DNA of 32,000 nt, from the NCBI GenBank assembly GCA_031283585.1, contig JAITBP010000002.1:2373-34372 (forward strand), in the 5' to 3' direction. The position numbers and the translations under genes are program-made. The notes beneath the pieces were generated by a model, which saw only the letters and a list, made by a program, of their open reading frames with translations, was not told the origin of the DNA and ran no database searches. Below, piece after piece: positions 4,733-25,248 of the stretch (the stretch's first letter is position 1; each line of letters begins with the position of its first letter). This DNA is from Puniceicoccales bacterium. Its GTDB lineage: Bacteria; Verrucomicrobiota; Verrucomicrobiia; Opitutales; LL51.

Positions 4733-5923
4733 ATGTACGAAAACCTTAGTTTTAAAATCACGCACACAGACAGTTCTTCCTGGGCACGATGCGGGTTACT
4801 TAAAACACCGCACGGCACCCTGGAGACCCCGAATTTTATCTTTTGCGCAACAAAAGGCGCCATGAAATCCCTTACAACGCAACAGGTTAAAGAAGCAGGT
4901 GCGGATATAATACTGTGCAACACCTATCATCTTTTCTTGCAACCCGGCGGCGGCTTTGTTCAAAAACACGGCGGGTTACATAAGATGTTGAATTGGAACG
5001 GCCCAATGCTCACCGATTCGGGAGGATTCCAAATATTTAGCTTTGGTCACGGCGGGATTAGCGCCGAACTCAAGGGAACTAGCAATCAAGCCAGACCGAA
5101 AACACTTCTCAAAATAGATGAAACCGGCGCGACATTCCGATCCTATGTGGATGGCCAGGTTCGTGTTCTGACACCGGAGGCGTCGATAAAAACCCAGTGC
5201 CAGCTCGGCGCTGACATAATTCTGGCGCTGGACGAATGTGCTCCGATCCGCGCGGATAAAAGCTACAACGAGCGTTCGATGAACCTGAGCCATCGCTGGG
5301 AACTGCGGTGCCTCGGTGAGTTTAAAAAATACGATACATCGATGCAGGCCCTGTATGGTGTAATCCAAGGTGGTGTGTATGAAGATCTTAGAAAACTAAG
5401 TGCGGAATTCGTCCGCAGCAACGACTTCTTCGGCCAGGCCATAGGCGGAAGCCTCGGAAAATCAAAAGCCCATATGCATGAAATTATAAGACTTACATGT
5501 CAACACATTGATAAGCAAAGACCTACGCATCTTCTTGGCATAGGAGGAATGAGCGATATCATCAATGGCATCGCCGGCGGGATAGATACCTTCGATTGCG
5601 TTCATCCGATGAGATTGGCCAGACATGGAGGCGCACTTCTTGAACCACAACATTGTGATGGAAAAGAGTTTATCAACATCAAGAATTCTAAATTCTCTGG
5701 AGATCTATCGCCAATTCAGGAAAACTGCAGCTGCTATTGCTGTAAAAATTTTACCAAAGCCTATATTCATTATCTGTTCAAAGCAAAAGAACTTCTTGGA
5801 GGCCAACTACTTGCAATACATAATACGGCGTTTATGAGCAACTTCTTAAAAGAAATAAGGGCAGCGATAAAAGCCGGAGCATTTGGCTCTATCATGAAAA
5901 GGTGGAATATTGTTGCACCCTGA
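4733..5923 (+). CDS. tgt: Queuine tRNA-ribosyltransferase (tRNA-guanine transglycosylase)
   Basis: TPNFIF..TKGA, NTYHL, TDSGGFQ, LDEC, GIDTFDCVHPMRLARHG and the zinc site CSCYCC...HN are all present. Confidence 0.92.
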   Translation: MYENLSFKITHTDSSSWARCGLLKTPHGTLETPNFIFCATKGAMKSLTTQQVKEAGADIILCNTYHLFLQPGGGFVQKHGGLHKMLNWNGPMLTDSGGFQIFSFGHGGISAELKGTSNQARPKTLLKIDETGATFRSYVDGQVRVLTPEASIKTQCQLGADIILALDECAPIRADKSYNERSMNLSHRWELRCLGEFKKYDTSMQALYGVIQGGVYEDLRKLSAEFVRSNDFFGQAIGGSLGKSKAHMHEIIRLTCQHIDKQRPTHLLGIGGMSDIINGIAGGIDTFDCVHPMRLARHGGALLEPQHCDGKEFINIKNSKFSGDLSPIQENCSCYCCKNFTKAYIHYLFKAKELLGGQLLAIHNTAFMSNFLKEIRAAIKAGAFGSIMKRWNIVAP

Positions 5924-6985
5924 TCAATCTACCGATATCTCTTGACCGGAGAAGAACTTACGTAATATCTTTGCACGCATGATATCGCGAAACTCTGGCA
6001 GAGCAGCTTCATCGGAAAACACCATCAGGTGGCCTTTTTGGATTTCCAGCATATACCTATCTATGCCGTTTCGATAGGACAACGGCAAAATTTCTCGCTC
6101 CGAAGCCAGCCTCATCCAGGATAAAAGCTCGAAAGCTTCACTACCTCCGATCTTGTAGCAGGATCGCAAAATTCCGTAGGCTCTGCAAATTTTGTCCAAA
6201 ATAAAAGACCTCGCCGACTTGAATATCCTGTCTCTCGCCAAATTTTCATGTTCCGTAACTGTCTTAGCCACATGCTCCATTTTCATTATTATGTCCTGTT
6301 CAGACAACCCCAGCGTGTGTTGATTCGACAGCTGAAAAATGTTACCGAAAGCGTTCGTGCCCTCGCCCAGAACGCCCCTGACCGTAACACCGATCTTATT
6401 GAGCGCACCTATGGTATGCTGAATTTGCTTATCTATCACCAGGCCAGGGAGATGCATCATGACCGAAGCCCTCATCCCGGTGCCAATATTTGTCGGGCAG
6501 GCGGTCAAATAACCAAGCCTTTTGTCAAAAGCAAAATCGCCGCCATCTAGATTGTCATCGATCGCACCTATAACAGTCCAAAGGGCCTTCAATCCCATGC
6601 CACCTCTAAGTGCTTGTATACGAAGATGATCTTCCTCATTTACCATGATCGAAATGGTCTGATCATTGCTGCAAGCCACGCAGGCACTGGGCAGCGACAG
6701 CTCCTTGCTTATGATATAATGTTCGCATAGGGCAAGTTTTTCATGGTCTTTCAACTCATTGATCCTGAAAAAAACACCGTCACTTAACTGCTTCAGTTTA
6801 ATTAACTTAGACTCCGCCACCGAGGCAATACTATCACGCTCTGCATCGCTGGCCCAATGCGGAAATCTATGGCTAATCAGGTTTCGCGCCAGCCTGATTC
6901 TTGAGCTCAAAACCACATCCTTTTGCTGGCCAACGTCGCCAAAAAATTTACCACTACTCAGCAAAAACTGTTTTACACTTTTCAT
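5924..6985 (-). CDS. mcsB: Protein arginine kinase McsB (ATP:guanido phosphotransferase family)
   Basis: SSRIRLARNL..FP, CPTNIGTGMRASVM.HLP and a C-terminal dimerisation-like region. The ATG at 6983-6985 overlaps the mcsA stop (TGATG). The track's first codon at 6988 is TTG. Confidence 0.9.
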   Translation of the reverse strand: MKSVKQFLLSSGKFFGDVGQQKDVVLSSRIRLARNLISHRFPHWASDAERDSIASVAESKLIKLKQLSDGVFFRINELKDHEKLALCEHYIISKELSLPSACVACSNDQTISIMVNEEDHLRIQALRGGMGLKALWTVIGAIDDNLDGGDFAFDKRLGYLTACPTNIGTGMRASVMMHLPGLVIDKQIQHTIGALNKIGVTVRGVLGEGTNAFGNIFQLSNQHTLGLSEQDIIMKMEHVAKTVTEHENLARDRIFKSARSFILDKICRAYGILRSCYKIGGSEAFELLSWMRLASEREILPLSYRNGIDRYMLEIQKGHLMVFSDEAALPEFRDIMRAKILRKFFSGQEISVD

Positions 6986-7482
6986 CAAAATTGCGACCTC
7001 AACTGGTCCCTTAGTTTTGCTGCATCTTCAAATCGTTCTTCTGCTATCGCCCGTTTCATGGCCTCTTCAAGGGATTCCCGTGAATCATTCAAGTTGGTAT
7101 TCAAAGACTTATCATCCATATGGCCAGGAATTTTTCCAATATGCTTCGTACTTTTTTGCAAATTTTCGATGGTTTTTATCATGAAATCATACATCCCTGA
7201 GTAACATTTCGGACAGCCAACAAACCCGGTTTCTTTATAATTTGACAGCGAAAAACCACAGCCATCGCAGCTGCAAACCGGACTAAAAGATAGCGCTTGC
7301 ATCTTGCTGATCAGTGCACTGCCAATATTCTTAAGTATCGATAAATGAGGAACATCTGACTCAAATATGCCACATTTCTGGGCACAGGCATTGCACAAAG
7401 ATATCTCCTGCATGCTGTCGTTCACAATCTGCGTCATCTGCACCATCGCAGGGTTTCCACAAAGGTAACATTTACTATCCAT
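6985..7482 (-). CDS. mcsA: McsA-like activator (zinc-finger and UVR-motif protein)
   Basis: Four CxxC pairs (CYLC, CNAC, CDGC, CPKC) and a C-terminal UVR-like motif FEDAAKLRDQL. I prefer the start at 7482 (MDSKCYLCG) over the upstream ATG at 7521, which adds a hydrophobic leader. Confidence 0.75.
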   Translation of the reverse strand: MDSKCYLCGNPAMVQMTQIVNDSMQEISLCNACAQKCGIFESDVPHLSILKNIGSALISKMQALSFSPVCSCDGCGFSLSNYKETGFVGCPKCYSGMYDFMIKTIENLQKSTKHIGKIPGHMDDKSLNTNLNDSRESLEEAMKRAIAEERFEDAAKLRDQLRSQF

Positions 7483-7530
7483 GACTACCGATAATATGAC
7501 CCGTAAAATTAATGCAATCAATCAAAATCA

Positions 7531-8565
7531 TTATTGTTTTAACTTACTGATAGCCTTCATGTTAAGGTAATAACGATAGACACCGTTCACAATTGCCAAC
7601 GCGGTCTTTTCTAGATTACCCTGTGCCGTAAACAGCCTAGCAACAGTGTCATTTGAAAGAAACTCCACCTCCACAAGCACTCCCGGACAGCTGAGACCTT
7701 TCAAAACACCAAACCTGGCATGCTTGACCCCGCGATCATCGAATTTTAATCGCTGCTTCATCGAATACAGCATTGAATAGCCAGCAACCGTGTTCCAATG
7801 ATCAAACCGGTTTCCCGGCAGAGCTATTGAATCAGAAGTCGTTTTCTTAGAACTAGAAGAAGATGGCTGCCCCGGCGGAGTCAATGTAAAAATTTCCACA
7901 CCTCTCACGGATTTAGTATTGGCCGAATTGAAATGTATGCTCAAAAAAAGATCTGCTTTTGCCCTGTTTGCCGCATTCACCCTATCGGCCAACTCCAGGT
8001 GAGCATCGCTGTTCCTTGTAAGGATCGCATTGAATCCCAATGTCTTAAGTTCAGTCTGCACAATCTTTGCAACGGCCAGGGTTAAATTTTTTTCTTCCAA
8101 CTTATAACCGCGATTAGTCGTACCACTATCCCTGCCACCATGGCCAGGATCGATAACAATGGTCTTTAATCCGGGAACGGAATTTGCGATGGATCTAGGA
8201 GCAAACATCGGCTGGACATATAACTTGTAATCGTCTATGGCGATATATAACTTTTTCTGTTGCAAGAGGATAGGGCTGCCAATAAAAATTTTACAATCGT
8301 TATAATAGAAATACCTATCCTTCGAAACAAACTTTGCCGATATGTCGGACTTGGAAATGGTCGCACTGTAATTGGATGAACAAATTTTAGCATCCAAATC
8401 CTTTGCCACGGAGTCCAGCGTAACATACTCTGTCCCAGCGCTTTTTATGCAGACCAACCCAGGTTTTTGACCCACGTCGGCCCGGAACAGCTTCCCCTGG
8501 CAATTTATGACAAAAACCAGGCAGATAATAACAACAAAAGTGGACAATAACAGACGAACGGACAT
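7531..8565 (-). CDS. N-acetylmuramoyl-L-alanine amidase (Amidase_3), secreted
   Basis: N-terminal signal-like segment, then IVIDPGHGGRDSGT, LSIHFNS and VLVEVEFLSN (Zn-ligand motifs of the AmiA/B/C type). Confidence 0.88.
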   Translation of the reverse strand: MSVRLLLSTFVVIICLVFVINCQGKLFRADVGQKPGLVCIKSAGTEYVTLDSVAKDLDAKICSSNYSATISKSDISAKFVSKDRYFYYNDCKIFIGSPILLQQKKLYIAIDDYKLYVQPMFAPRSIANSVPGLKTIVIDPGHGGRDSGTTNRGYKLEEKNLTLAVAKIVQTELKTLGFNAILTRNSDAHLELADRVNAANRAKADLFLSIHFNSANTKSVRGVEIFTLTPPGQPSSSSSKKTTSDSIALPGNRFDHWNTVAGYSMLYSMKQRLKFDDRGVKHARFGVLKGLSCPGVLVEVEFLSNDTVARLFTAQGNLEKTALAIVNGVYRYYLNMKAISKLKQ

Positions 8566-8568
8566 AGG

Positions 8569-9180
8569 CTACAATTCAAGCCCGTTATTAAGATCTTTTA
8601 TGTTATCGGTGGCAACCTTTTTTTTGTGCGACCTAACCGGCGATAAGCTCAACGTAATCAGGCGCCCGGCCAATCTTGGCTCGTTGTCAGGCGTGCCAAA
8701 TTCCTTAACATCTTCAATCACTTTCTTTATCAGATCAAAGCCCAGGCCAATAAGGTCCATCTCACGCCCCCTAAAAACCACACCTATTTTGACTTTGCTG
8801 CCGTCGGCCAGAAAAGCCAACACATGTCTCAGTTTAGTTTGGTAATCATGCTCTTCGGTGCAAAAGCGAAATTTTACTTCCTTAACCTTAGCCGTCGCAC
8901 TTTTACCAGATTTTTGCTTTTTCCCCTCGTCATACTTGTACTTGCCAAAATCTACGATCTTGCACACCGGAGGGATTGCATTTGCACTAACCTCTACAAG
9001 ATCAAGACCTTCTTGCTTAGCTATGGCTATGGCCGCGGAAACTTCCATCACACCAAGCGGCAGCCCGTCAGAACCTATCACACGAACTTCCTTTGCCTTA
9101 ATTTTTTCGTTTTTTCTGGTATAATTTTTCCACGGGCCTTTCTTGCCGAAACCACCGCCTCTAAATGAAACATTTGCCAT
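8569..9180 (-). CDS. infC: Translation initiation factor IF-3
   Basis: NEKIKAKEVRVIGSDGLPLGV....A...A...GLDLVEVS....PPVCKIVDFGKYKY is the IF3 N-domain and the C-domain follows. An ATG start gives a ~25-aa Gly/Arg-rich N-terminal extension. Confidence 0.9.
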   Translation of the reverse strand: MANVSFRGGGFGKKGPWKNYTRKNEKIKAKEVRVIGSDGLPLGVMEVSAAIAIAKQEGLDLVEVSANAIPPVCKIVDFGKYKYDEGKKQKSGKSATAKVKEVKFRFCTEEHDYQTKLRHVLAFLADGSKVKIGVVFRGREMDLIGLGFDLIKKVIEDVKEFGTPDNEPRLAGRLITLSLSPVRSHKKKVATDNIKDLNNGLEL

Positions 9181-9201
9181 TAATATATCAACCCAATCTG
9201 C

Positions 9202-9215
9202 GACAGATATCTGTC
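9202..9215. repeat. Perfect 14-bp palindrome GACAGATATCTGTC in the infC upstream region
   Basis: Read directly from the sequence. It lies 22-35 nt upstream of the infC ATG. On the + strand it is followed by TAATTTTTT. Confidence 0.6.
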
Positions 9216-9264
9216 TAATTTTTTAGTAATTTGACATTTTTTCAATCCAATATTTATAGGTGAT

Positions 9265-10722
9265 TTACCCGGCAACGAACATCTCGTTTTTCCAGTGCGG
9301 CTTACTAAACATACACATAATAAATGGAAAAATAACACTCAACAGGTTGCCGATGATCATCACAGTAACATACAAGAACATATTATCAATATGCAACTCA
9401 CCCGGAGGTATGAATCCAACAAAATAACACGCTAAACATACCAATATACCAATAATACATACAACTATCATGCCCACATTACCAAAGGGCACCTTATAAC
9501 TTCTCGTCACCGCCGGGAACTTATACCTAAGTACCACGGCCGCAACAAACATCAAAATATACATCAGAAGCAGCGACTGGGTTGAAAACGCGACCAAAAC
9601 CCAAAAACAGGTTTCCACCGAATCCCACAGGACGAACAACATGGAAAACAGAGTTATAATACCTGCCTGGAATATCATTATCGCCGATGGCATCCCTACT
9701 TCGTTCACCTTCTGCAACATCGGAGGCAGATTGCCTGTCCGTGCCGTAGCCAACATGCCCCGGGCTGGCCCGGCAATCCAGGTCACAAACCAAGCTACCA
9801 CACCAAACACCATCATTCCGGCCATCACAGGACTTAGCCATTTCAATCCAAATCCGGACAGCAACACATCCATCGCATTGATCACGCCGGTTTCCAGAGT
9901 CAAACATTCTTTTGGAACTGCTATGGCAATTGCCATGGAGCCAAATGCATACAGACCAAAAACCAACAGCGATGATATCAAAATAGCCCTTGGGAAATTT
10001 TTCTGAGGATTAGCCACATCCCGGGTATGGACAGCAGACACCTCTAGGCCAGCAAACCCTAGCATCACATTCAAAAACAATACCCATTGGGCCGGCTCGG
10101 CCAACGGTGGAACAATCCTGGAAGCGTTAAACTCAATATTTGAATGTTTGCCTGTCACAAGCCATAGGCCTCCTAGAGCTATGATCACAAACCCAGGAAT
10201 AAATGTACCAAAAATACTCCCGATGTTAGTTATCGCCGTTGCAACCCGCATTCCTTTCATCGTCACCAGGGTTCCAATCCATATTGTAACCAAAATAACG
10301 CCAAGTACATAGATGTTGTTATGAGCCAGGGACGGAATACCCACCGCATAGGAAAGCACTCCAGCCAGGTAGACCAGCGAAACCGGAATTGTCACAAAAT
10401 TTGAAAAATTTTGCAGCCAAACGGCTAAAAATCCGATCCTGTTACCCAGCGCCTTGCCTACCCAGTTAAAAATACCGCCATCCTCGGGAAATCCTGTGGC
10501 CAATTCCGCCGAAACCAGCGCAGTCGGTATCAGAAACGTCACCATTGCAACGCCATAAAAAAACAACATCGACATTCCGTAGACAGCCATCGCCGGCAAA
10601 TTCCTAAGATTCGCTACGGTGGCAAAGGTCATCATAGCTAGAGAAAATACGCTAATACCCGCCGTCCAAGTTATGTGACCACTAGAATCCACCCCCTTGC
10701 ACTGAATAACACCCACTGACAT
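9265..10722 (-). CDS. APC-superfamily amino acid permease/antiporter (GadC/AaxC-like)
   Basis: About 12 TM segments. The N-terminal region SAELATGFPEDGGIFNWVGKALGNRIGF matches the APC signature region. Confidence 0.85.
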   Translation of the reverse strand: MSVGVIQCKGVDSSGHITWTAGISVFSLAMMTFATVANLRNLPAMAVYGMSMLFFYGVAMVTFLIPTALVSAELATGFPEDGGIFNWVGKALGNRIGFLAVWLQNFSNFVTIPVSLVYLAGVLSYAVGIPSLAHNNIYVLGVILVTIWIGTLVTMKGMRVATAITNIGSIFGTFIPGFVIIALGGLWLVTGKHSNIEFNASRIVPPLAEPAQWVLFLNVMLGFAGLEVSAVHTRDVANPQKNFPRAILISSLLVFGLYAFGSMAIAIAVPKECLTLETGVINAMDVLLSGFGLKWLSPVMAGMMVFGVVAWFVTWIAGPARGMLATARTGNLPPMLQKVNEVGMPSAIMIFQAGIITLFSMLFVLWDSVETCFWVLVAFSTQSLLLMYILMFVAAVVLRYKFPAVTRSYKVPFGNVGMIVVCIIGILVCLACYFVGFIPPGELHIDNMFLYVTVMIIGNLLSVIFPFIMCMFSKPHWKNEMFVAG

Positions 10723-10938: not shown

Positions 10939-11826
10939 ATGAATGAGGTCATATATTACGCCATAAAAGCCCTTGAAGATCTGCGTGATAGCGGACATGA
11001 GAGCATTCCAATCAGCGGTGAAAACATAGAATTTTTATTGTCGCTGATCAACGATGGCCAAAGAGAGGATTACAGCTCTCTGAATTCCATCGACAGGGCC
11101 AGTGAAGCCAACGCCATGGCCGACAATGCTGGATCAAACCCGATTACACCCAACACCATCCAGAACATTGAACCACCGGTTAACGGCTCCATCAACCTAC
11201 CCGAGGGAACCAAGCAGGAGCAATGGAACTGGCTGCGAAACAAAGTCCTTAGCTGTCCGGTATGCAATGCCCAGGTTAATCCTGGGAAAAAAATTGTATT
11301 CGGCGTTGGAAATCTCGATGCGGATATCTTTCTATGTGGAGAAGCACCAGGTGCCGATGAAGAGATTGTTGGTGAACCATTTGTAGGTCGCGCAGGCCAA
11401 TTGCTAACAAAAATCATCACCGCCATGGGCATAGGTCGGGAGGATGTTTATATAGGAAATATAATGAATTGGCGGCCCAAAATGCCGACAAAGACTGGCA
11501 ATAGACCACCGACAAAAGAGGAAATGCAATTCTGCCTGCCCTATCTATGCGCCCAGCTGCAAATAGTAAAACCAAAAGTTATCCTGGCCCTGGGCGCAAC
11601 CGCCGTGAATGGACTGCTTGGCCAGGATGACTCCCGAAGAATTTCCGATATCAGAGGCAAGTGGCTGGAATTCAATGGAATAAAACTAATACCAACCTTC
11701 CATCCATCCTATGTTTTGAGAAATAACAGCAACCAAACCAAACGGCTGGTCTGGGAGGATTTTATGAAGGTCATGGAGTTCCTAGGCCTACCGATATCAG
11801 ACAAGCAACGAAAATTCTTCACCTAA
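10939..11826 (+). CDS. Uracil-DNA glycosylase, family 4, with a ~100-aa N-terminal extension
   Basis: CPVC...IVFGVGN..ADIFLCGEAPGADEE..GEPFVGRAGQLL and FHPSYVLRN are family-4 UDG motifs. Confidence 0.85.
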   Translation: MNEVIYYAIKALEDLRDSGHESIPISGENIEFLLSLINDGQREDYSSLNSIDRASEANAMADNAGSNPITPNTIQNIEPPVNGSINLPEGTKQEQWNWLRNKVLSCPVCNAQVNPGKKIVFGVGNLDADIFLCGEAPGADEEIVGEPFVGRAGQLLTKIITAMGIGREDVYIGNIMNWRPKMPTKTGNRPPTKEEMQFCLPYLCAQLQIVKPKVILALGATAVNGLLGQDDSRRISDIRGKWLEFNGIKLIPTFHPSYVLRNNSNQTKRLVWEDFMKVMEFLGLPISDKQRKFFT

Positions 11827-11902
11827 CAGTGAACTTATCTTTGACAAACCGCCCATCGATAGACAATATTTGCCGACGGCTAAGTATTGTAAGACCAATA
11901 CA

Positions 11903-12400
11903 ATGAGAAAGTTAAAGAAAGTTTTAATCGAATTATTCCTGGCACTTATGGTGGTTCTGGTCTATTTTGCCTTAAAATATAGAACAGTCTTCAGCCACCG
12001 GGCATTCCCTGGAATGAAAAACAATTCGGCCGCCGAATATATGGATAAAAAAACCAAAGCCGAGCCACTGATAGACAGGGCTCGGGAAACGCTTGAAACA
12101 TGCCTAAGGTTCTTGAACGCCAAGGCTTTTGACCATGAAGTAGAAGAGCAAAAGCAACTTCTTCTTAAACAAAGAAACGACGTACCTTTGCCCTGCAGAG
12201 AATCATTTAATACATTCGTGTTTTTTGTGGATGAAATAATAAATGAAGATGTTATGGATATAGCTCGAATGGGCATAAATAATCTCGACAAGGCATTGTA
12301 CGATGCTTTCAACGATTTGATAACCAGCTATGCATCCTATCTTAACGATCAACCTGGACACGAAAATTTCCAAAAAGCCGCCAAGATGGATTCCAATTAA
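11903..12400 (+). CDS. Hypothetical membrane-anchored protein
   Basis: ATG at 11903 gives MRKLKKVLIELFLALMVVLVYFAL (a single N-terminal TM) followed by a helical acidic domain. The track's start at 11870 is TTG. I recognise no family. Confidence 0.5.
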   Translation: MRKLKKVLIELFLALMVVLVYFALKYRTVFSHRAFPGMKNNSAAEYMDKKTKAEPLIDRARETLETCLRFLNAKAFDHEVEEQKQLLLKQRNDVPLPCRESFNTFVFFVDEIINEDVMDIARMGINNLDKALYDAFNDLITSYASYLNDQPGHENFQKAAKMDSN

Positions 12401-17342: not shown

Positions 17343-17408
17343 CGGTCAGAGCTCCGTTCTACTTAGAATATCCTGTTGAAGGTTTGTCAATGATTTTATC
17401 CATGATCA

Positions 17409-17427
17409 AATAAATTTAAAATTTATT
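17409..17427. repeat. Perfect 9+1+9 palindrome AATAAATTTAAAATTTATT in the dedA/upp divergent intergenic region
   Basis: Read directly from the sequence. It is AT-only, so the chance expectation in AT-rich spacer DNA is not negligible. Confidence 0.5.
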
Positions 17428-17515
17428 AACAACTTGATTAAAACCTGGACTGAATACAGTTGCTCTTCATCAAATTTCCATTGATTTAGGGAAAATCAAC
17501 CCTAAGGTCTAATCC

Positions 17516-18136
17516 ATGGCTTTGCATACTGTAAGTAATCCGATAATGCAAAATGCACTATCACTGTTAAGAAATGTAAATAGTTCGCTGATCCAATTCC
17601 GTCAGGCTTGCAAACAAGTCACCGCCGGCCTGGTGCTTGATGCGTCTAACCGTTTTTCTACAAAAGACGTAATTATCAAAACACCACTGGCAACCTGCAA
17701 AGCCTGCCGGATCGAAAATCAGGTGGCTTTTATCCCAATTTTAAGGGCAGGACTGGCCATGTTAGACTGTGCCATCGGCCTTATTCCCGAAGCCAAAATC
17801 GGCTACCTTGGGCTCCAGCGTGACGGGAAGCCCACGAAAACGTCACCGTACTATGAAAATCTACCCAGCCTGGACGGAGCCAATGTGATGCTGCTGGATC
17901 CCATTCTGGCCACCGGTAATTCGGCGATTCAGGCCATCGAACGCATTTTGAAAAAAAATCCCAAAACCGTAACCCTGTGCTGTATCGTCGTGTCTTCGGA
18001 AGGCATAACCCATATATCAGAAAAATTTTGCGATGTGCATGTCTACACCGTTGCCATCGACGACAACATCAACGCCAAAAAGTATCTAGTGCCTGGCCTG
18101 GGTGACTTTGGAGATAGATTCAATGCAACGATTTAA
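17516..18136 (+). CDS. upp: Uracil phosphoribosyltransferase
   Basis: ILRAGLAML, the PRPP loop MLLDPILATGNSA, and C-terminal YLVPGLGDFGDRF. Confidence 0.9.
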   Translation: MALHTVSNPIMQNALSLLRNVNSSLIQFRQACKQVTAGLVLDASNRFSTKDVIIKTPLATCKACRIENQVAFIPILRAGLAMLDCAIGLIPEAKIGYLGLQRDGKPTKTSPYYENLPSLDGANVMLLDPILATGNSAIQAIERILKKNPKTVTLCCIVVSSEGITHISEKFCDVHVYTVAIDDNINAKKYLVPGLGDFGDRFNATI

Positions 18137-18154
18137 TGCCTAAATTCTGCTCCA

Positions 18155-20044
18155 ATGGATGAGTTAGAATACAGGCTTGGGTTAAAAAAAATCCGCCTAA
18201 TATTGCTCTATATAGTCCTGTTTGGCCTGGCAATTTTTCTGGCAACTGGCATGTTTTGGCGTCAGATAATTTGCTACGAACATTTTTTGCAAAAAGAACG
18301 ACACCAAAATCTTAGAAGAATCCTGGTACCCGCACCGCGAGGTAATATATATGACCGAAATGGCAACCCTCTTGCCCATAATTCGCCCAGCCACGAGTTG
18401 CTGCTCTATCTACCATTGCTTCGCAGTGAATTTAACCAGGAATATGTCAATCTTCTTCGAAGCGCAAGGGCTTCTGGCATAAATACAAACAAAAAAAATC
18501 TACAGATCGAAGCCCGTAAAAATATAATTCAAAAATACATGGACCAGGTCAGGGCACTAACCCATAGAAACCTGTCCGTGACTCCGGCACAGATCGAACG
18601 CCATTATAACAAAGAACTGCTGCTGCCATTTGTACTGATGGGTAATCTGACCGATCTGGAATACGTAACACTGGTAGAAAACATCGCCCCGGACTCACCA
18701 TTACGGATTGGGACAGAATATGTTAGGTCCTATCCTCGGGGCACAGCAGCCTGCCATGTGATTGGCTACGTAACATCCACCAAAACACTGGGAGGCCTGG
18801 ATAATAACATAACCACATTTCGCCAATATAATAAGCTGGGCAAAGCTGGCATTGAACTGATAATGAATGACTTGCTAAGCGGAACCTCGGGTGAAGAAAT
18901 CCTCTCGGTGGATCCATCTGGGTTTAAAGCCCAAACCACCGAGTTCAGAAACCCTGAGAAAGGCCAGGACTGTTATATAAGCATAGACATAGATCTACAG
19001 CAGGTTGCCGAAACCTCCCTCGGCGACAAAATTGGCAGTGTCGTGGTCCTGGACGTGCGCACCGGCGAAGTACTTGTGATGGCAAGTAAGCCGAATTATG
19101 ACCTTGGAAAGATGAGTCCACGCATAACCAATGAAATTTTTAGCAAAATATCCGCAGAAACCGGCTGGCTAAATCGATCAACCCAGGGACTATATCCGCC
19201 GGGGTCCACATTTAAGCTCCTGTCGGCCATAGCATTCCTAAAATCTGGCACGGCAACCTGGGATCCAGCGGATACCGAACTTTGCCAGGGCAGCACGATG
19301 ATTGGTACAGGAAAATTTCGCTGCGATAACCATCGCGCCCATGGAAAAATCGGATTACACGAAGCCATCAAAAAAAGCTGTAATGTATATTTTTATAATC
19401 GCAGCCAAAAATGTGGCATAGACTTCATAAGCAAGGAAGCCCACAGGTTTGGACTAGACTCTAAAACCGGCCTGGAGTTGCCCTACGAAACCTCAAAAAT
19501 GATTGTGCCGACCAAAACCTGGAAAATCGCTAAAAATCTAGGACCCTGGTTGGGCGGTGACACGGCCAACACGTCCATCGGCCAGGGATACCTACGGCTA
19601 ACACCGCTGCAAATGGCCTGCTTCACCGCCTCGGTGGCCAGAAATGAAACCAGAACCACTCCCCATATTATACATGAAGAAAACAGACCATCCCAACAGG
19701 GTTGCCACGAAGAAATAGGCCTCAGCAACGATGACTACACAAAGCTTATCTCAGCCTTCGAAGATGCGGTCAATGGTGGAACCTGTTGGCGTGCAAGGAT
19801 ACAAGGACTGCGTGTCGCCGGTAAAACCGGCACAGCCCAGGTATGGGAAAACGGCAAAAAAAGGAACGTGGCCTGGTTTATAGGATTCGCACCGGTGGAA
19901 GATCCTCAAATCGCCATCGCCGTGGCTGTACAAGAAAAATCCGAATCGGACAGCTACTACGGTTCAACCCATGCGGCGCCCCTGGCTAAAGATACCATGG
20001 AATACTATTTTTCTAAATTTTTAAACAAAATTCCATGCCCTTGA
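18155..20044 (+). CDS. mrdA: Penicillin-binding protein 2 (class B transpeptidase)
   Basis: N-terminal TM, then PAPRGNIYDRNGNPLA. The three transpeptidase motifs STFK, SCN and KTGTA are in the correct order. Confidence 0.9.
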   Translation: MDELEYRLGLKKIRLILLYIVLFGLAIFLATGMFWRQIICYEHFLQKERHQNLRRILVPAPRGNIYDRNGNPLAHNSPSHELLLYLPLLRSEFNQEYVNLLRSARASGINTNKKNLQIEARKNIIQKYMDQVRALTHRNLSVTPAQIERHYNKELLLPFVLMGNLTDLEYVTLVENIAPDSPLRIGTEYVRSYPRGTAACHVIGYVTSTKTLGGLDNNITTFRQYNKLGKAGIELIMNDLLSGTSGEEILSVDPSGFKAQTTEFRNPEKGQDCYISIDIDLQQVAETSLGDKIGSVVVLDVRTGEVLVMASKPNYDLGKMSPRITNEIFSKISAETGWLNRSTQGLYPPGSTFKLLSAIAFLKSGTATWDPADTELCQGSTMIGTGKFRCDNHRAHGKIGLHEAIKKSCNVYFYNRSQKCGIDFISKEAHRFGLDSKTGLELPYETSKMIVPTKTWKIAKNLGPWLGGDTANTSIGQGYLRLTPLQMACFTASVARNETRTTPHIIHEENRPSQQGCHEEIGLSNDDYTKLISAFEDAVNGGTCWRARIQGLRVAGKTGTAQVWENGKKRNVAWFIGFAPVEDPQIAIAVAVQEKSESDSYYGSTHAAPLAKDTMEYYFSKFLNKIPCP

Positions 20045-20089
20045 CTAAAGATTCTTGATGTTTTGGCTCCAAAAGCTAAGGTCAGGTTT

Positions 20090-21640
20090 ATGTCCGAAGC
20101 TATTTTGAACCAAATACGTGAAGAAATCAATGCCATCAGGTTCTCCTGTCAAAAGAAAAACCTAGGTGAAATAGTGGAACTTGCCGATGGAGTTGCCCTG
20201 GTCGAAGGTCTATCCGGAGCGATGGCCAATGAGATGATATCGTTTGGCAATAGCATATTTGGCATAGCCCTAAATCTCGAGGAGGACTACGTGGGCGTCG
20301 TTTTGCTCGGTGACAGCACAGGCCTAAAAGAAGGTGATCAGGCGGAAACCACTGGTAGGCTCCTGTCCGTACCGGTGGGCATGGCATTGCTTGGTCGGAT
20401 CATCGACCCACTGGGAAACCCGTTGGATGGCAAGGGACAGTTAGACCGCAGCACCATGTACCCTATGGAAAAGCCTGCACCGGGCATTATGGCCAGAAAA
20501 TCTGTCACCCAACCGCTCCAGACCGGGATAATTGCGATCGATGCGATGATACCGATAGGCCGGGGTCAAAGGGAACTGATAATCGGCGATCGATCCACCG
20601 GCAAAAGCGCCATAGCCATAGATACGATCATCAATCAGGCCAGGATAAATCGCGCTGGAATCGCCAGCAAAGACAAGGATTTTCGACCTGTGTATTCGAT
20701 CTATGTGGCGATTGGTCAAAAAAATTCCACCGTGGCCAGAACCATACAGCTTCTGACCGAAACCGGTGCATTGGATTACACCGTTGTGGTGAATTCTCCG
20801 GCCGCCGACAATCCGGCCAATCAATATCTGGCACCCTACGCCGGTTGTGCTATCGGTGAATGGTTTATGGAACATGGCCAGGATGCGTTAATTGTATACG
20901 ATGACCTTTCTAAACACGCCACCGCCTATCGACAGATATCGCTGGTTCTGAAGCGTCCATCGGGGCGTGAAGCCTATCCAGGTGATGTGTTTTATCTGCA
21001 TTCCAGGTTGCTTGAAAGGTCGGCAAAATTGAATGAAGACCTGGGTAATGGTTCGCTGACCGCTCTGCCCATAATAGAAACCCAGGCCGGGGATGTTTCG
21101 GCCTACATTCCCACCAACGTCATATCCATCACCGATGGCCAAATTTTCCTGGATACAGATCTATTCAACCGAGGCATTAGGCCAGCAATCTCGGTGGGAA
21201 TCTCAGTATCAAGAGTCGGGTCAGCGGCCCAGTTGAAAGCATTTAAACAACTGGCCAACAAATTAAAGCTCCAGCTCGGCCAATACTACGAACTAGCTGC
21301 CTTTGCCCAATTCGGTTCGGATCTGGATCAAAACACCCAGCAACAGCTAGACCGTGGGGCCCGGATCGTAGAGTTATTCAAGCAGTCGACATCAAAGCCC
21401 AAGGACATAGGTGAGCAACTCCTAATACTCTGGGCCATAAATCACGGCATTTTCGATGACATTCCATTGCCCAGTGCATTGGAAGCCTCGGACCAGGTGA
21501 TTGCCCACTGCCAGGCCACCTCCATCGATTTGCTGAATTCGATCATCTCTAAAAAAGAAATAACCGACGAACTGAACCAACAGTTGGACACGGTGATCTC
21601 TTCCTGGAAACAATCTTTCCTAGCCAATTCACCGGCCTAA
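20090..21640 (+). CDS. atpA: F-type ATP synthase subunit alpha
   Basis: [18 protein letters not shown]-loop [36 protein letters not shown] and [15 protein letters not shown] prefer the ATG at 20090 (the track start at 20063 is TTG). Confidence 0.92.
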
Positions 21641-21648
21641 TTTTACTA

Positions 21649-21676
21649 TTGTTAAAATTTTTTACATTATTATAGT
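21649..21676 (+). promoter_or_regulatory. Candidate sigma70-like promoter for paralog A (TTGTTA-16 nt-TATAGT)
   Basis: The hexamers and spacing were read directly. The -10 element ends 11 nt before the ATG, so the leader would be very short. The same architecture is conserved in unit B. Confidence 0.35.
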
Positions 21677-21687
21677 TCATATCTGTT

Positions 21688-22221
21688 ATGGGTGGAATTG
21701 GCGATATAAATAATAATAATTATAATTATAATGGCGTCAGCTGGACTGGAAGGAGAGAAATTCTTAAAAATAATGGCATCGGTAACTGCTTTTCCAGACT
21801 GTTTCTTGCCAGCAAATGGGGCTCAGGGAAAAATGCCATGAGCGTTGCAATGAGTGGAACAACCGCTATTTCAAATATAAAAACCGGAAGCCTAAAGGAA
21901 AAAAAAGCCATAAAATACGGCCAACAATTCATACAAAATCTTGTCAACAAATTTAACAGCCCTAATACCACCCCAAAGGAGAAGACTGAAATAGCCAACC
22001 AAATTAGGTCGCTAACAGGGAAAAGAGAAGATGCAAGCATAGGTGTAGATAACCGAACTGAAAATCGATATGATTTTATCACTGACAATAAGTTAAAAGA
22101 TGATTTAGCAAAGATAGAAAAAGACCCATCAATAAGAAAAACTCATGAACAATCTATGACTCAGCAATCAATGAAAGAACTAGCAGCAAAATTAAATAAA
22201 GGAAATCCACATCCTAAATAA
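21688..22221 (+). CDS. Hypothetical 177-aa protein, paralog A of a duplicated pair
   Basis: MGGIGDINNNNYNYNGVSW....L.NNGIGNCFSRLFLA... aligns along its length with the product of 22467-22946. I recognise no family. Confidence 0.6.
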   Translation: MGGIGDINNNNYNYNGVSWTGRREILKNNGIGNCFSRLFLASKWGSGKNAMSVAMSGTTAISNIKTGSLKEKKAIKYGQQFIQNLVNKFNSPNTTPKEKTEIANQIRSLTGKREDASIGVDNRTENRYDFITDNKLKDDLAKIEKDPSIRKTHEQSMTQQSMKELAAKLNKGNPHPK

Positions 22222-22233
22222 TAGAAAGATACC

Positions 22234-22420
22234 TGGCTATGGGGTATCAAAACAAAAAATACCTTAAAAATTCCGTTACTGAATTTTCCTGAGCTGCTTC
22301 CCTGGGTCTACCAGGGATTCGATTTTTCTAAAAAAGAAGTAACTGACGATCTGAATCATCATTTGGAAGCCTCGTTTTTTTCTTGGAAACTGGCTTTTTT
22401 TGCCGGTTTGCCGGAAGTGA
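22234..22420 (+). pseudogene. Relic copy of the atpA 3' end (last ~70 codons), not attached to any atpA body
   Basis: The frame reads LWGIKTKNTLKIPLLNFPELLPWVYQGFDFSKKEVTDDLNHHLEASFFSWKLAFFAGLPEV, against the AtpA tail [70 protein letters not shown]. By hand count, 63 of 93 nt are identical over 22327-22419 versus 21548-21640. The stretch 22234-22314 is less certain. Confidence 0.7.
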
Positions 22421-22427
22421 TTTACTA

Positions 22428-22455
22428 TTGTCAAAATTTTTCATACTATTATTAT
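22428..22455 (+). promoter_or_regulatory. Candidate sigma70-like promoter for paralog B (TTGTCA-16 nt-TATTAT)
   Basis: Positionally equivalent to 21649-21676. The upstream block TTTACTATTGT(T/C)AAAATTTTT is nearly identical in both units. Confidence 0.35.
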
Positions 22456-22466
22456 ATTGGATTGCT

Positions 22467-22946
22467 ATGGGATGGATGGGAATTACTGGTAGTAGGCGTA
22501 ATTATAACAGCCTTTCCTGGTCTGAAAAGAGAAAGGTACTCGCAAATGCAAACGTTGGGAACTGGTTCACCAGATTATTCCTTGCTATTGGCGACAGACA
22601 TGAATCAAATACAATGGAACCAATTGCGAAAAAAGTAGTAGCTTTGACCAGCATCAAGCTATCCGAACGCAAGGTCCATAAAACCATGCATGGGGCAGAG
22701 AAAATATTCCAGTCCCTGGTTAATAAATACAATCAATCGGAAAATGAAACCGAAAAAAAAGAGATAGGTACCCGCATAAAAGTCCTACTAGGAAAAAAAG
22801 GCAGCAATGCCCAGGAAAATGATCCTCTAATCTCCATCAGCAATGATAAATTAAGAGAAGACATCGCCAACCTATTGCAAGATATGGCTAAAAACAACGA
22901 CATGCCAGTCGAAATATTGCGGCCAATGCAGCCTTTACATAAATAA
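22467..22946 (+). CDS. Hypothetical 159-aa protein, paralog B of a duplicated pair
   Basis: The ATG at 22467 gives MGWMGITGSRRNYNSLSW....L.NANVGNWFTRLFLA..., parallel to paralog A. The track's longer ORF from 22383 starts at a TTG inside the spacer. Confidence 0.6.
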   Translation: MGWMGITGSRRNYNSLSWSEKRKVLANANVGNWFTRLFLAIGDRHESNTMEPIAKKVVALTSIKLSERKVHKTMHGAEKIFQSLVNKYNQSENETEKKEIGTRIKVLLGKKGSNAQENDPLISISNDKLREDIANLLQDMAKNNDMPVEILRPMQPLHK

Positions 22947-22967
22947 AACCCTAGCCTAATAACCAAA

Positions 22968-23043
22968 TGGTGGAGCCGATCGGGTTCGAACCGACGACCT
23001 CCACAATGCCATTGTGGCGCTCTTCCAACTGAGCTACGACCCC
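22968..23043 (-). tRNA. tRNA-Ala (anticodon GGC), CCA encoded
   Basis: The reverse complement folds as a cloverleaf: GGGGTCG acceptor with G3:U70, D-arm GCTCAGTTGGAAGAGC, anticodon stem CCACA/TGTGG with loop ATGGCAT, T-arm GTCGG-TTCGAAC-CCGAT, then ACCA. Confidence 0.93.
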
Positions 23044-23047
23044 ATTC

Positions 23048-23124
23048 TGGCACACCCCACAGGAGTCGAACCTGCAACCTTCTGATCCGTAGTCAGATGC
23101 TCTATCCAATTGAGCTAGGGGTGC
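23048..23124 (-). tRNA. tRNA-Arg (anticodon ACG), CCA encoded
   Basis: The reverse complement is GCACCCCTAGCTCAATTGGATAGAGCATCTGACTACGGATCAGAAGGTTGCAGGTTCGACTCCTGTGGGGTGTGCCA. The anticodon loop is CTACGGA. It lies 4 nt from tRNA-Ala. Confidence 0.9.
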
Positions 23125-24014: not shown

Positions 24015-24129
24015 AAATCCCCAACACTGTGCATTATAATACTAATCGGCGTTATTACAGCAATAATATGAATATAGTTGTATATTTTTCTGGACAAAGC
24101 GAATAGATAATAGCATAGTGTCAAATGTG

Positions 24130-25248
24130 ATGAGTTTTAAATCAACCTATGTAGGGATTTTTTATTTGTTATTTACATCAATTGGGCTATGCGTAGAGAC
24201 TGCCGATGCTGTGGACCTGGATAAAATAGAGGTCCCGGGTGAAAATTACGATAATGCCCAATCCACGATAGACACTGAGAAATCGATCCAGTCCATTGAC
24301 CACAAATATGACAAACTTATAACGGCCTATGGTTGGTTATCTGGACATAAACTTAACATTACAGAACTGGAATTCACCGACCGAGAGTGGGAATTGTTTA
24401 TCCAGGGGCTAAGACTCTGCTGTAAAGATAAATATCCAAAGATTGAAGGCAGTGATGAAGCGGAACATTACATAGAAAAAAGACGTGAAGAAAATCGCAG
24501 GAAAGAATCCGAAGATTATATTAACTATCTTTGTAAAAATCATAGTGTGATCAACCTCTGCGATGGGGCATGGTGTGAAATTATTAACAAGGGTGATGAA
24601 AAAATGCGACCCAACGACAATTCCATAGTGACCATAGAGTATATGCTTAGGTCGACAGCCGATAAGGTAACTATCTCTTCGAGGGACCTTCATTATTACC
24701 AAGGGTTAAAAGTAGATATTAATTCTCTTCCAAAAGAATATAATAAAGGATTGAGGTTAGTAGGCAAAGGCGGTTCAATGTGGTTGTACTCTGTAGCAGA
24801 GGCTAATCCTGACAATTATGACAACCTATGGCCAGATTGGTCAGGTTATAATGGTGACGAATTGGAGTTTAAAAAAGCAATTTTTTCGATTGGGTCTGTC
24901 AGAATATCAAGGGTTACTCTGTTGGATGTGGAACCGTCCAATGGCCAGAAGCCACCTATTACCAAGGCTTTGGATGATTTTGTTTTTTTCTATTTTGATG
25001 ATAATTTTAATGGTGGTAATGATATGGATGACGACATCGGCGATGACGATGACATCGGCGACGACGTTGGCGATGATGTTGATAATGAAAAAGATGATGA
25101 TTTATTCTCACCGCTCGACGCCAGCCCAACAGTAGATGATGGTCTGGAAGATGATGAGGAAGGTGACGATGACGACGTCATATTTCTGCCATCGCCTGCC
25201 CAATTATTAAAATCGGCGGCATCAACTGAGAAAACACCGGCTCCCTAA
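24130..25248 (+). CDS. Secreted Mip/FkpA-like (FKBP_N + degenerate FKBP_C) protein with a poly-Asp C-terminal tail
   Basis: Signal-like N-terminus. AYGWLSGHKLNITELEFTDREWELFIQGL resembles FKBP_N. YLCKNHSVINLCDGAWCEIINKGDEKMRPNDNSIVTIEYML...GLRLVGKGGSMWLY parallels the Mip FKBP domain, but the FDSS, GW and YG positions are not conserved. The start is either GTG at 24118 or ATG at 24130. Confidence 0.45.
   Translation: MSFKSTYVGIFYLLFTSIGLCVETADAVDLDKIEVPGENYDNAQSTIDTEKSIQSIDHKYDKLITAYGWLSGHKLNITELEFTDREWELFIQGLRLCCKDKYPKIEGSDEAEHYIEKRREENRRKESEDYINYLCKNHSVINLCDGAWCEIINKGDEKMRPNDNSIVTIEYMLRSTADKVTISSRDLHYYQGLKVDINSLPKEYNKGLRLVGKGGSMWLYSVAEANPDNYDNLWPDWSGYNGDELEFKKAIFSIGSVRISRVTLLDVEPSNGQKPPITKALDDFVFFYFDDNFNGGNDMDDDIGDDDDIGDDVGDDVDNEKDDDLFSPLDASPTVDDGLEDDEEGDDDDVIFLPSPAQLLKSAASTEKTPAP

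Follow-up and report, generated by a model that had tools for sequence, protein, structure and literature searches.

The atpA locus

The 32,000-nucleotide (nt) stretch of Puniceicoccales DNA analysed here, referred to as the window, carries a gene for the alpha subunit of the F1 ATP synthase, atpA, which is followed on the same strand by two short genes, P1 and P2. The region between 19800 and 23600 was read closely and its open reading frames (ORFs) were listed; the features that concern this study are collected in Table 1. The product of atpA has all three domains of the alpha/beta subunits, PF02874 (ATP-synt_ab_N), PF00006 (ATP-synt_ab) and PF00306 (ATP-synt_ab_C), each above the cut-offs. 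Between P1 and P2 lie 245 nt with no credible ORF, and this interval contains a truncated second copy of the atpA 3' end, called the relic below. The arrangement is not a mis-assembly, since an independent Logan assembly of run SRR14710909 reproduces positions 18524-23015 with 4 mismatches.

Table 1. Features of the atpA-P1-P2 locus, with positions in the window (aa, amino acids)
Feature	Positions	Strand	Remarks
atpA	20090-21640	+	F1 ATP synthase alpha subunit, 516 aa; Pfam E = 6e-11 to 4e-76; 100% match to 'F0F1 ATP synthase subunit alpha [Puniceicoccales bacterium]'
Repeat unit 1, segment a	21536-21640	+	Final 35 codons of atpA, recurring in the relic
Repeat unit 1, segment b	21641-21687	+	47-nt spacer with P1 promoter-like site (-35 at 21649-21654, -10 at 21671-21676)
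P1	21688-22221	+	177-aa protein of a clade-restricted orphan family; 100% match to a Puniceicoccales bacterium protein
Duplication junction and decayed 5' part of relic	22222-22315	+	Terminator-like hairpin at 22299-22317, then TTCGATTTTT
Repeat unit 2, segment a	22316-22420	+	atpA-tail relic, non-coding, without in-frame stop; conserved island
12-mer TTGGAAGCCTCG	22363-22374	+	Exact match to atpA 21479-21490, which is not the homologous site
Repeat unit 2, segment b	22421-22466	+	Spacer with P2 promoter-like site (-35 at 22428-22433, -10 at 22450-22455)
P2	22467-22946	+	159-aa paralog of P1
tRNA-Ala(GGC) and tRNA-Arg(ACG)	22968-23124	-	Conserved right-hand border of the locus

A head-to-tail repeat within the window

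The original prediction, made from the letters of the window, held that the end of atpA, the spacer behind it and the 177-aa gene recur head-to-tail directly after that gene. The repeat is real. A local DNA alignment of 21425-22221 with 22222-22946 scores 104, against 23.3±2.5 (maximum 32) for 200 shuffles, and it covers 21536-21809 and 22316-22585 with no large gaps, running from the atpA tail through the spacer into the 5' part of the P gene. The copies of the repeat are about 69% identical. Translated in the atpA frame, the relic reads SKKEVTDDLNHHLEASFFSWKLAFFAGLP and scores 81 against the AtpA tail with BLOSUM62 (shuffles 24±4), and its two other frames give chance-level scores. In DNA, the 3' part of the relic scores 41 against the atpA tail of the window, compared with 7.1±1.0 for shuffles (z = 34). 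The stop codon of the parent gene has been lost, as had been claimed, and no in-frame stop is found in the atpA frame of the relic.

The predicted length of the relic, some 70 codons, holds for only the last ~35 codons, which are all that is demonstrably derived from atpA in the window. The remainder, 22234-22315, in which an 'IPL' segment and a deletion of ~30 nt had been read, aligns with atpA no better than shuffled sequence does (z = -0.7). All 94 nt from the P1 stop codon to the recognisable relic (22222-22315) are not alignable to atpA, and the exact junction of the duplication is lost with them.

One might ask whether the likeness of 22316-22420 to the atpA tail is itself a chance or low-complexity match, given that its core contains the purine run AAAAAAGAAG and that the 5' part of the claimed relic is at chance level. 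This is scarcely credible: the scores lie 14-34 standard deviations (SD) above those of shuffles in both DNA and protein, the collinearity extends into the spacer and the gene, and the same relic is present in three other genomes. The result that was to have told against the prediction, a score at shuffle level, was therefore not obtained for this segment.

The spacer and the genes complete the repeat. The spacer block TTTACTATTGTYAAAATTTTT occurs in the 32 kb at 21642 and 22421 only, with 0 occurrences expected, and both copies contain a promoter-like site, TTGTTA-16-TATAGT (21649-21676) upstream of P1 and TTGTCA-16-TATTAT (22428-22455) upstream of P2. Each site ends 11 nt before the ATG, so the equal distance of the hexamers from the two start codons was read correctly. 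P1 and P2 are paralogs, as had been proposed, with 35% identity over 147 aa (E=7e-23). No additional copies of the relic core or of the spacer block were found in the window. The two units have the same orientation, the order of tail, spacer and gene is collinear, and the similarity is above chance, as expected of a tandem segmental duplication. The locus very probably goes back to an old event in an ancestor of the clade, in which the atpA 3' end, the promoter spacer and the P gene were duplicated head-to-tail. This reading, which was also the one first favoured, explains every collinear segment and is backed by the relics of related genomes.

The locus in related genomes

Four related contigs (L002, L005, L006 and L007) carry P-family genes, and three others (L003, L009 and L011) serve as outgroups. 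The five genomes with P genes, the window included, are roughly equidistant: over 390 aa of AtpA the identity is 84-86%, and for the neighbouring nucleotidyl-transferase it is 56-60%. L002, whose AtpA is 84% identical to that of the window by BLASTP and 83% in a global alignment, has the syntenic order upp-PBP2-atpA. The L006 contig is identical to JAIRXD010000068.1, 'Puniceicoccales bacterium isolate Gsp477_bin142', a metagenome-assembled genome from the gut of the lower termite Glyptotermes, the source of sample Gsp477 (PMC11707648). In the search for more relatives, a scan of genome contigs gave only the L006 contig, a scan of metagenomes by the family motif gave none, and a pattern scan for the relic core gave three matches, all of them unrelated coding sequence.

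An atpA-tail relic follows the first P gene in L002, L006 and L007. In L002 the order is atpA, two P pseudogene pieces, an intact P gene and a relic that extends as far as the contig does. In the stretch 11552-12159, two extra partial copies of the P unit separate atpA from the intact gene, namely psi1, a P pseudogene (11671-11857, z = 20.6), and psi2, a promoter with a 5' piece of the gene (11882-11964, z = 10.4). The L002 locus thus re-duplicates without the atpA tail. Its relic also retains AAATCAT..TTTTAATGACATTCCATTG, which matches the atpA codons INHG.FDDIPL (z = 6). Because this match lies further upstream in atpA, the relic was formerly longer than its recognisable part in the window, and the longer original relic of the first prediction is plausible.

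L006 has an atpA tail, P1, the relic, a promoter-like block (TTGTTA-16-TATCAT), a decayed gene and tRNA-Ala. The best-kept 77 nt (1202-1278) of the decayed gene (1126-1590) match P2 of the window with z = 6.6, as against z = 0.8 for P1 of the window and z = 0.0 for P1 of L006 itself. This identifies the decayed gene, from its sequence, as an ortholog of P2, a copy that L006 has lost while retaining the promoter-like block. In L007, atpA and P1 are followed by a relic where the contig ends. In L005, an intact-looking end of the tail with a stop (KSWTYHSNPAA*) is followed by the spacer, one P gene and directly by tRNA-Ala, which is possibly the single-copy state; the contig starts 36 nt before the spacer. 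A second full atpA, which would have spoken for gene decay rather than partial duplication, was seen at none of the related loci.

As a separate observation, L002 (12658-12668) and L007 (1787-1797) share an identical 11-mer, CAATTAACAAA, a few bases beyond the P1 stop codon; the remaining interval has no detectable similarity.

The related genomes also bear on an alternative raised by the original prediction, in which a small integrating element, carrying P1 and a replacement atpA 3' end, inserted into atpA and left the original tail displaced as the relic. Its topology of intact gene, inserted DNA and orphan copy of the gene's 3' end has a counterpart in prophage e14, whose integration in Escherichia coli icd leaves 163 bp of that gene's 3' end duplicated as pseudo icd' (PMC6379469). 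However, e14 is a site-specific element with an integrase and near-identical att repeats, whereas P1 is the sole gene between the atpA repeats and has no Pfam domain, no PDB relative and no recombinase beside it. The repeat is not limited to an att-like core either, as it runs on through the 47-nt spacer and its promoter into the paralogous gene, and its copies are ~69% rather than nearly identical. Moreover, the relic is found in four of the five related genomes, and the L005 contig begins too near the spacer to tell. An inserted element is for these reasons a most improbable source of the locus.

One duplication or several

If the tandem duplication took place once, the relics should resemble each other. 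Pairwise comparisons of the relic 3' parts among the window, L002 and L006 give z = 20.9, 13.6 and 20.2, and the relics of L002 and L006 score lower against their own atpA tails (z = 10.7 and 8.3). In the relic core, the window and L002 agree at 37 of 43 positions, compared with 33-34 of 43 between the L002 relic and either atpA tail. An alignment of eight sequences, one atpA tail and one relic each from the window, L002, L006 and L007, contains two columns at which all tails agree and three relics share a different base. The similarity among relics and the P2-specific remnant in L006 therefore point, at the level of sequence, to a single duplication that predates these lineages.

Several observations weigh against so simple a history. 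The L007 relic is nearest its own atpA tail (z = 7.9, versus 1.6-4.5 with the other relics), and a separate event or gene conversion may have occurred in that lineage. The window relic, too, scores slightly higher with its own tail (41) than with the other relics (34 and 28), which may point to a degree of exchange with atpA. No 5' boundary could be assigned to the duplicated unit, as 22222-22315 has no significant similarity to atpA, and no unambiguous single-copy outgroup was found, the L005 contig beginning where it does.

The first two of these points are also what could be expected if the relic were renewed in each lineage, by recurrent independent duplications or by ongoing gene conversion from atpA. 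At informative sites the window relic matches its own tail over those of L006 (21:8) and L007 (27:7), and the L002 locus demonstrably re-duplicates. Against L002 the count is 14:6, which is not significant (p = 0.12), and the window tail is the most conservative of the four, which partly explains the excess over L006 and L007; the L006 relic, too, prefers the window tail (17:10). In L002, L006 and L007 the site counts yield nothing significant in favour of conversion from tail to relic; for the L002 and L006 relics, own and other tails stand at 8:7, 10:17 and 10:18, with no excess. Since the relics of L002 and L006 are much nearer each other and the window relic than their own tails, and since the P2-specific similarity in L006 indicates one shared event, renewal in each lineage is an unlikely account of the relic.

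The 12-mer TTGGAAGCCTCG has been cited in the same connection, as its sharing with a non-homologous site in atpA suggests templated exchange. As first reported, the exact match occurs in the window only at 21479 and 22363, which are non-equivalent positions. The L002 relic reads CCGAAGTCTTTT at this place and shares 6 of the 12 bases, so half of this motif is an ancestral trait of the relics, and all six bases specific to the window equal those of the upstream atpA site (21479-21490). The 12-mer could be the product of a short templated repair from atpA, or of chance.

A conserved non-coding island

The preservation of the relic is uneven. Between the atpA genes of the window and L002, pS is 0.67 and dS ~1.7, and four-fold sites are 48% identical, which amounts to synonymous saturation; neutral DNA should therefore be unrecognisable at this distance. 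The interval from the P1 stop codon to the relic core bears this out, as no pair of genomes is similar there (z between -1.4 and 0.9). The 3' ~105 nt of the relic and the spacer are nevertheless still alignable across genomes, with 13 columns invariant in all eight sequences. This part of the relic behaves as a conserved non-coding island, and it may have been kept by selection. In atpA itself, synonymous divergence is not reduced over the last 35 codons (pS 0.62-0.79, compared with 0.66-0.77 upstream), so that any constraint lies with the relic rather than with its parent sequence.

Several other readings were considered and either rejected or not supported. The atpA tail does not appear to serve as regulatory DNA for P1, as its last 35 codons have no synonymous drop. 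A protein-coding remnant is at odds with the stops that break the atpA frame in L002, L006 and L007, and the minus-strand ORFs that might represent a small antisense gene are inconsistent in length and start. A structured RNA is not supported by folding of the four relics against shuffles (z = -1.3, -1.3, -0.7 and +0.2); the four relics have no hairpin in common, and an Rfam search returned only the two tRNAs. At the border of the decayed and conserved parts of the relic, the window has a hairpin, TCCCTGGGTCTACCAGGGA, followed by TTCGATTTTT (22299-22326); a conserved intrinsic terminator was rejected, as the hairpin at 22299-22317 has no plus-strand equivalent in the L002, L006 and L007 relics.

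That the island is recognisable despite saturation, that its 5' part and flanks have decayed, and that the atpA tail has no extra constraint at the DNA level leads us to suggest, tentatively and at rather less than even chances, that this former coding fragment was recruited as a cis-acting non-coding element. It may, for instance, form part of the terminator region or 3' end of P1, or be an upstream control site of P2. The island is also retained in L006, where P2 is dead, and a role tied to P1 therefore fits better than one tied to P2. If it is functional, the island would exemplify, on a small scale, the reuse of coding sequence for regulation.

The P gene family

A HMMER profile of P1 and P2 was run against the full set of 1.84 billion representative proteins. 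In that set the family consists of six proteins, P1, P2 and four others, encoded in L002, L005, L006 and L007, and all four of these lie directly downstream of an atpA 3' end. The P family is thus confined to one Puniceicoccales clade and always stands beside atpA; the outgroups L003, L009 and L011, at ~70% AtpA identity, have no P gene. No match to the family was found in Pfam or in the PDB, and its AlphaFold model is all-helical with low confidence (pLDDT 57).

The P genes are real coding genes, because their N-terminal ~85 codons are under purifying selection, with pN/pS well below 1 and omega 0.15-0.37. The motif GN.F(T/S)RLF is invariant in the family. The P genes evolve very fast: P1 of the window and the L002 P protein are 34% identical, against 83% for AtpA in the same global alignments.

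In the window (21671-21690 and 22450-22469), in L006 (366-384) and in L007 (1269-1288), 10-11 nt separate the end of the -10 hexamer from the ATG and a Shine-Dalgarno sequence is absent, which suggests that P mRNAs would be near-leaderless. An upstream TTG start for P2 (22383) was rejected, since the extension is closed in P1 and in the relatives and would enclose the promoter.

Proposed history and comparison with known systems

In the history proposed here, a segment of at least ~0.8 kb, starting within the 3' end of atpA and ending a few bases beyond the P stop codon, would have been duplicated in tandem in the ancestor of a small Puniceicoccales clade, probably by unequal recombination or slippage. 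The upstream copy of the tail would have stayed joined to atpA and remained coding, and the downstream copy would have become an orphan relic between P1 and P2. Because the duplicated unit included the 47-nt spacer with the P promoter, P2 would have had from the outset a working promoter, 11 nt from its ATG as in P1, promoter activity being predicted for both copies. Rapid divergence would then have brought the P copies down to 35% identity, and the relic would have decayed to noise in its 5' part, the 3' ~105 nt and the spacer being kept. Later changes would be specific to lineages, as in the loss of P2 in L006 and the partial re-duplication in L002.

Spontaneous tandem duplications and amplifications of the bacterial chromosome have join points that form between short or no homologies, as described in the literature of Roth and Andersson. 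The atpA locus shares the main traits of bacterial tandem duplications: the copies are head-to-tail, the join point lies inside one gene, atpA, and leaves a truncated fragment, and the unit carries its own, here predicted, promoter, so that the new copy would be expressed. Duplications obtained in the laboratory are young, identical and unstable, whereas that of the window is fixed, has diverged to 35% protein identity and is common to several lineages, with the gene fragment still recognisable. Examples of tandem duplication and amplification in bacteria are found in PMC11111574 and PMC4432121.

There is also a likeness to genome rearrangement in animals. The tandem-duplication-random-loss model accounts for changes of gene order in animal mitochondrial genomes. 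Both there and here a tandem duplication is followed by lineage-specific decay, now of one copy, now of the other, that leaves pseudogene remnants, such as the lost P2 of L006 and the P pieces of L002. The atpA locus differs in that it belongs to a bacterial chromosome, that both copies are intact in the window, and that the remnant is a fragment of the neighbouring gene, cut by the duplication boundary. The locus is an instance of a well-known process, with nothing unusual about it apart from the orphan family and the conserved relic island.

Neighbouring genes

The atpA gene of the window is isolated: it follows upp and a gene for a PBP2-type transpeptidase (17516-21640), with no neighbouring atpH or atpG. 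An isolated atpA is also seen in L002, L003 and L009. L011, a Puniceicoccales contig of the same JGI metagenome series with an AtpA identity of 69%, has the order atpA-atpG-atpD-x-atpC at 5001-10158. The F1 genes are thus split up in the lineage of the window.

Upstream of upp, the intergenic regions of the window (17343-17515) and L002 (7185-7421) contain the conserved islands TTGTCAAT and CATTGATTT...AAATCAACCCTA and differ by a 66-nt insertion or deletion. Elsewhere in the window, a gene for a UVR-motif protein adjoins one for an ATP:guanido phosphotransferase on the minus strand (5924-7521), which resembles the McsA/McsB arginine-kinase pair. On the plus strand, 24118-25248 encodes a 376-aa protein with no Pfam match and a long Asp/Glu-rich C-terminal tail; the syntenic place in L006 encodes an FKBP_N/FKBP_C protein.

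Significance

The locus leaves the current understanding of genome evolution unchanged. It offers a natural example of what remains of a tandem duplication in the long term, with a truncated fragment of an essential gene, a new gene copy with its promoter, and lineage-specific loss and re-duplication. The P family, as a fast-evolving orphan family, could give a handle on symbiont-specific biology.

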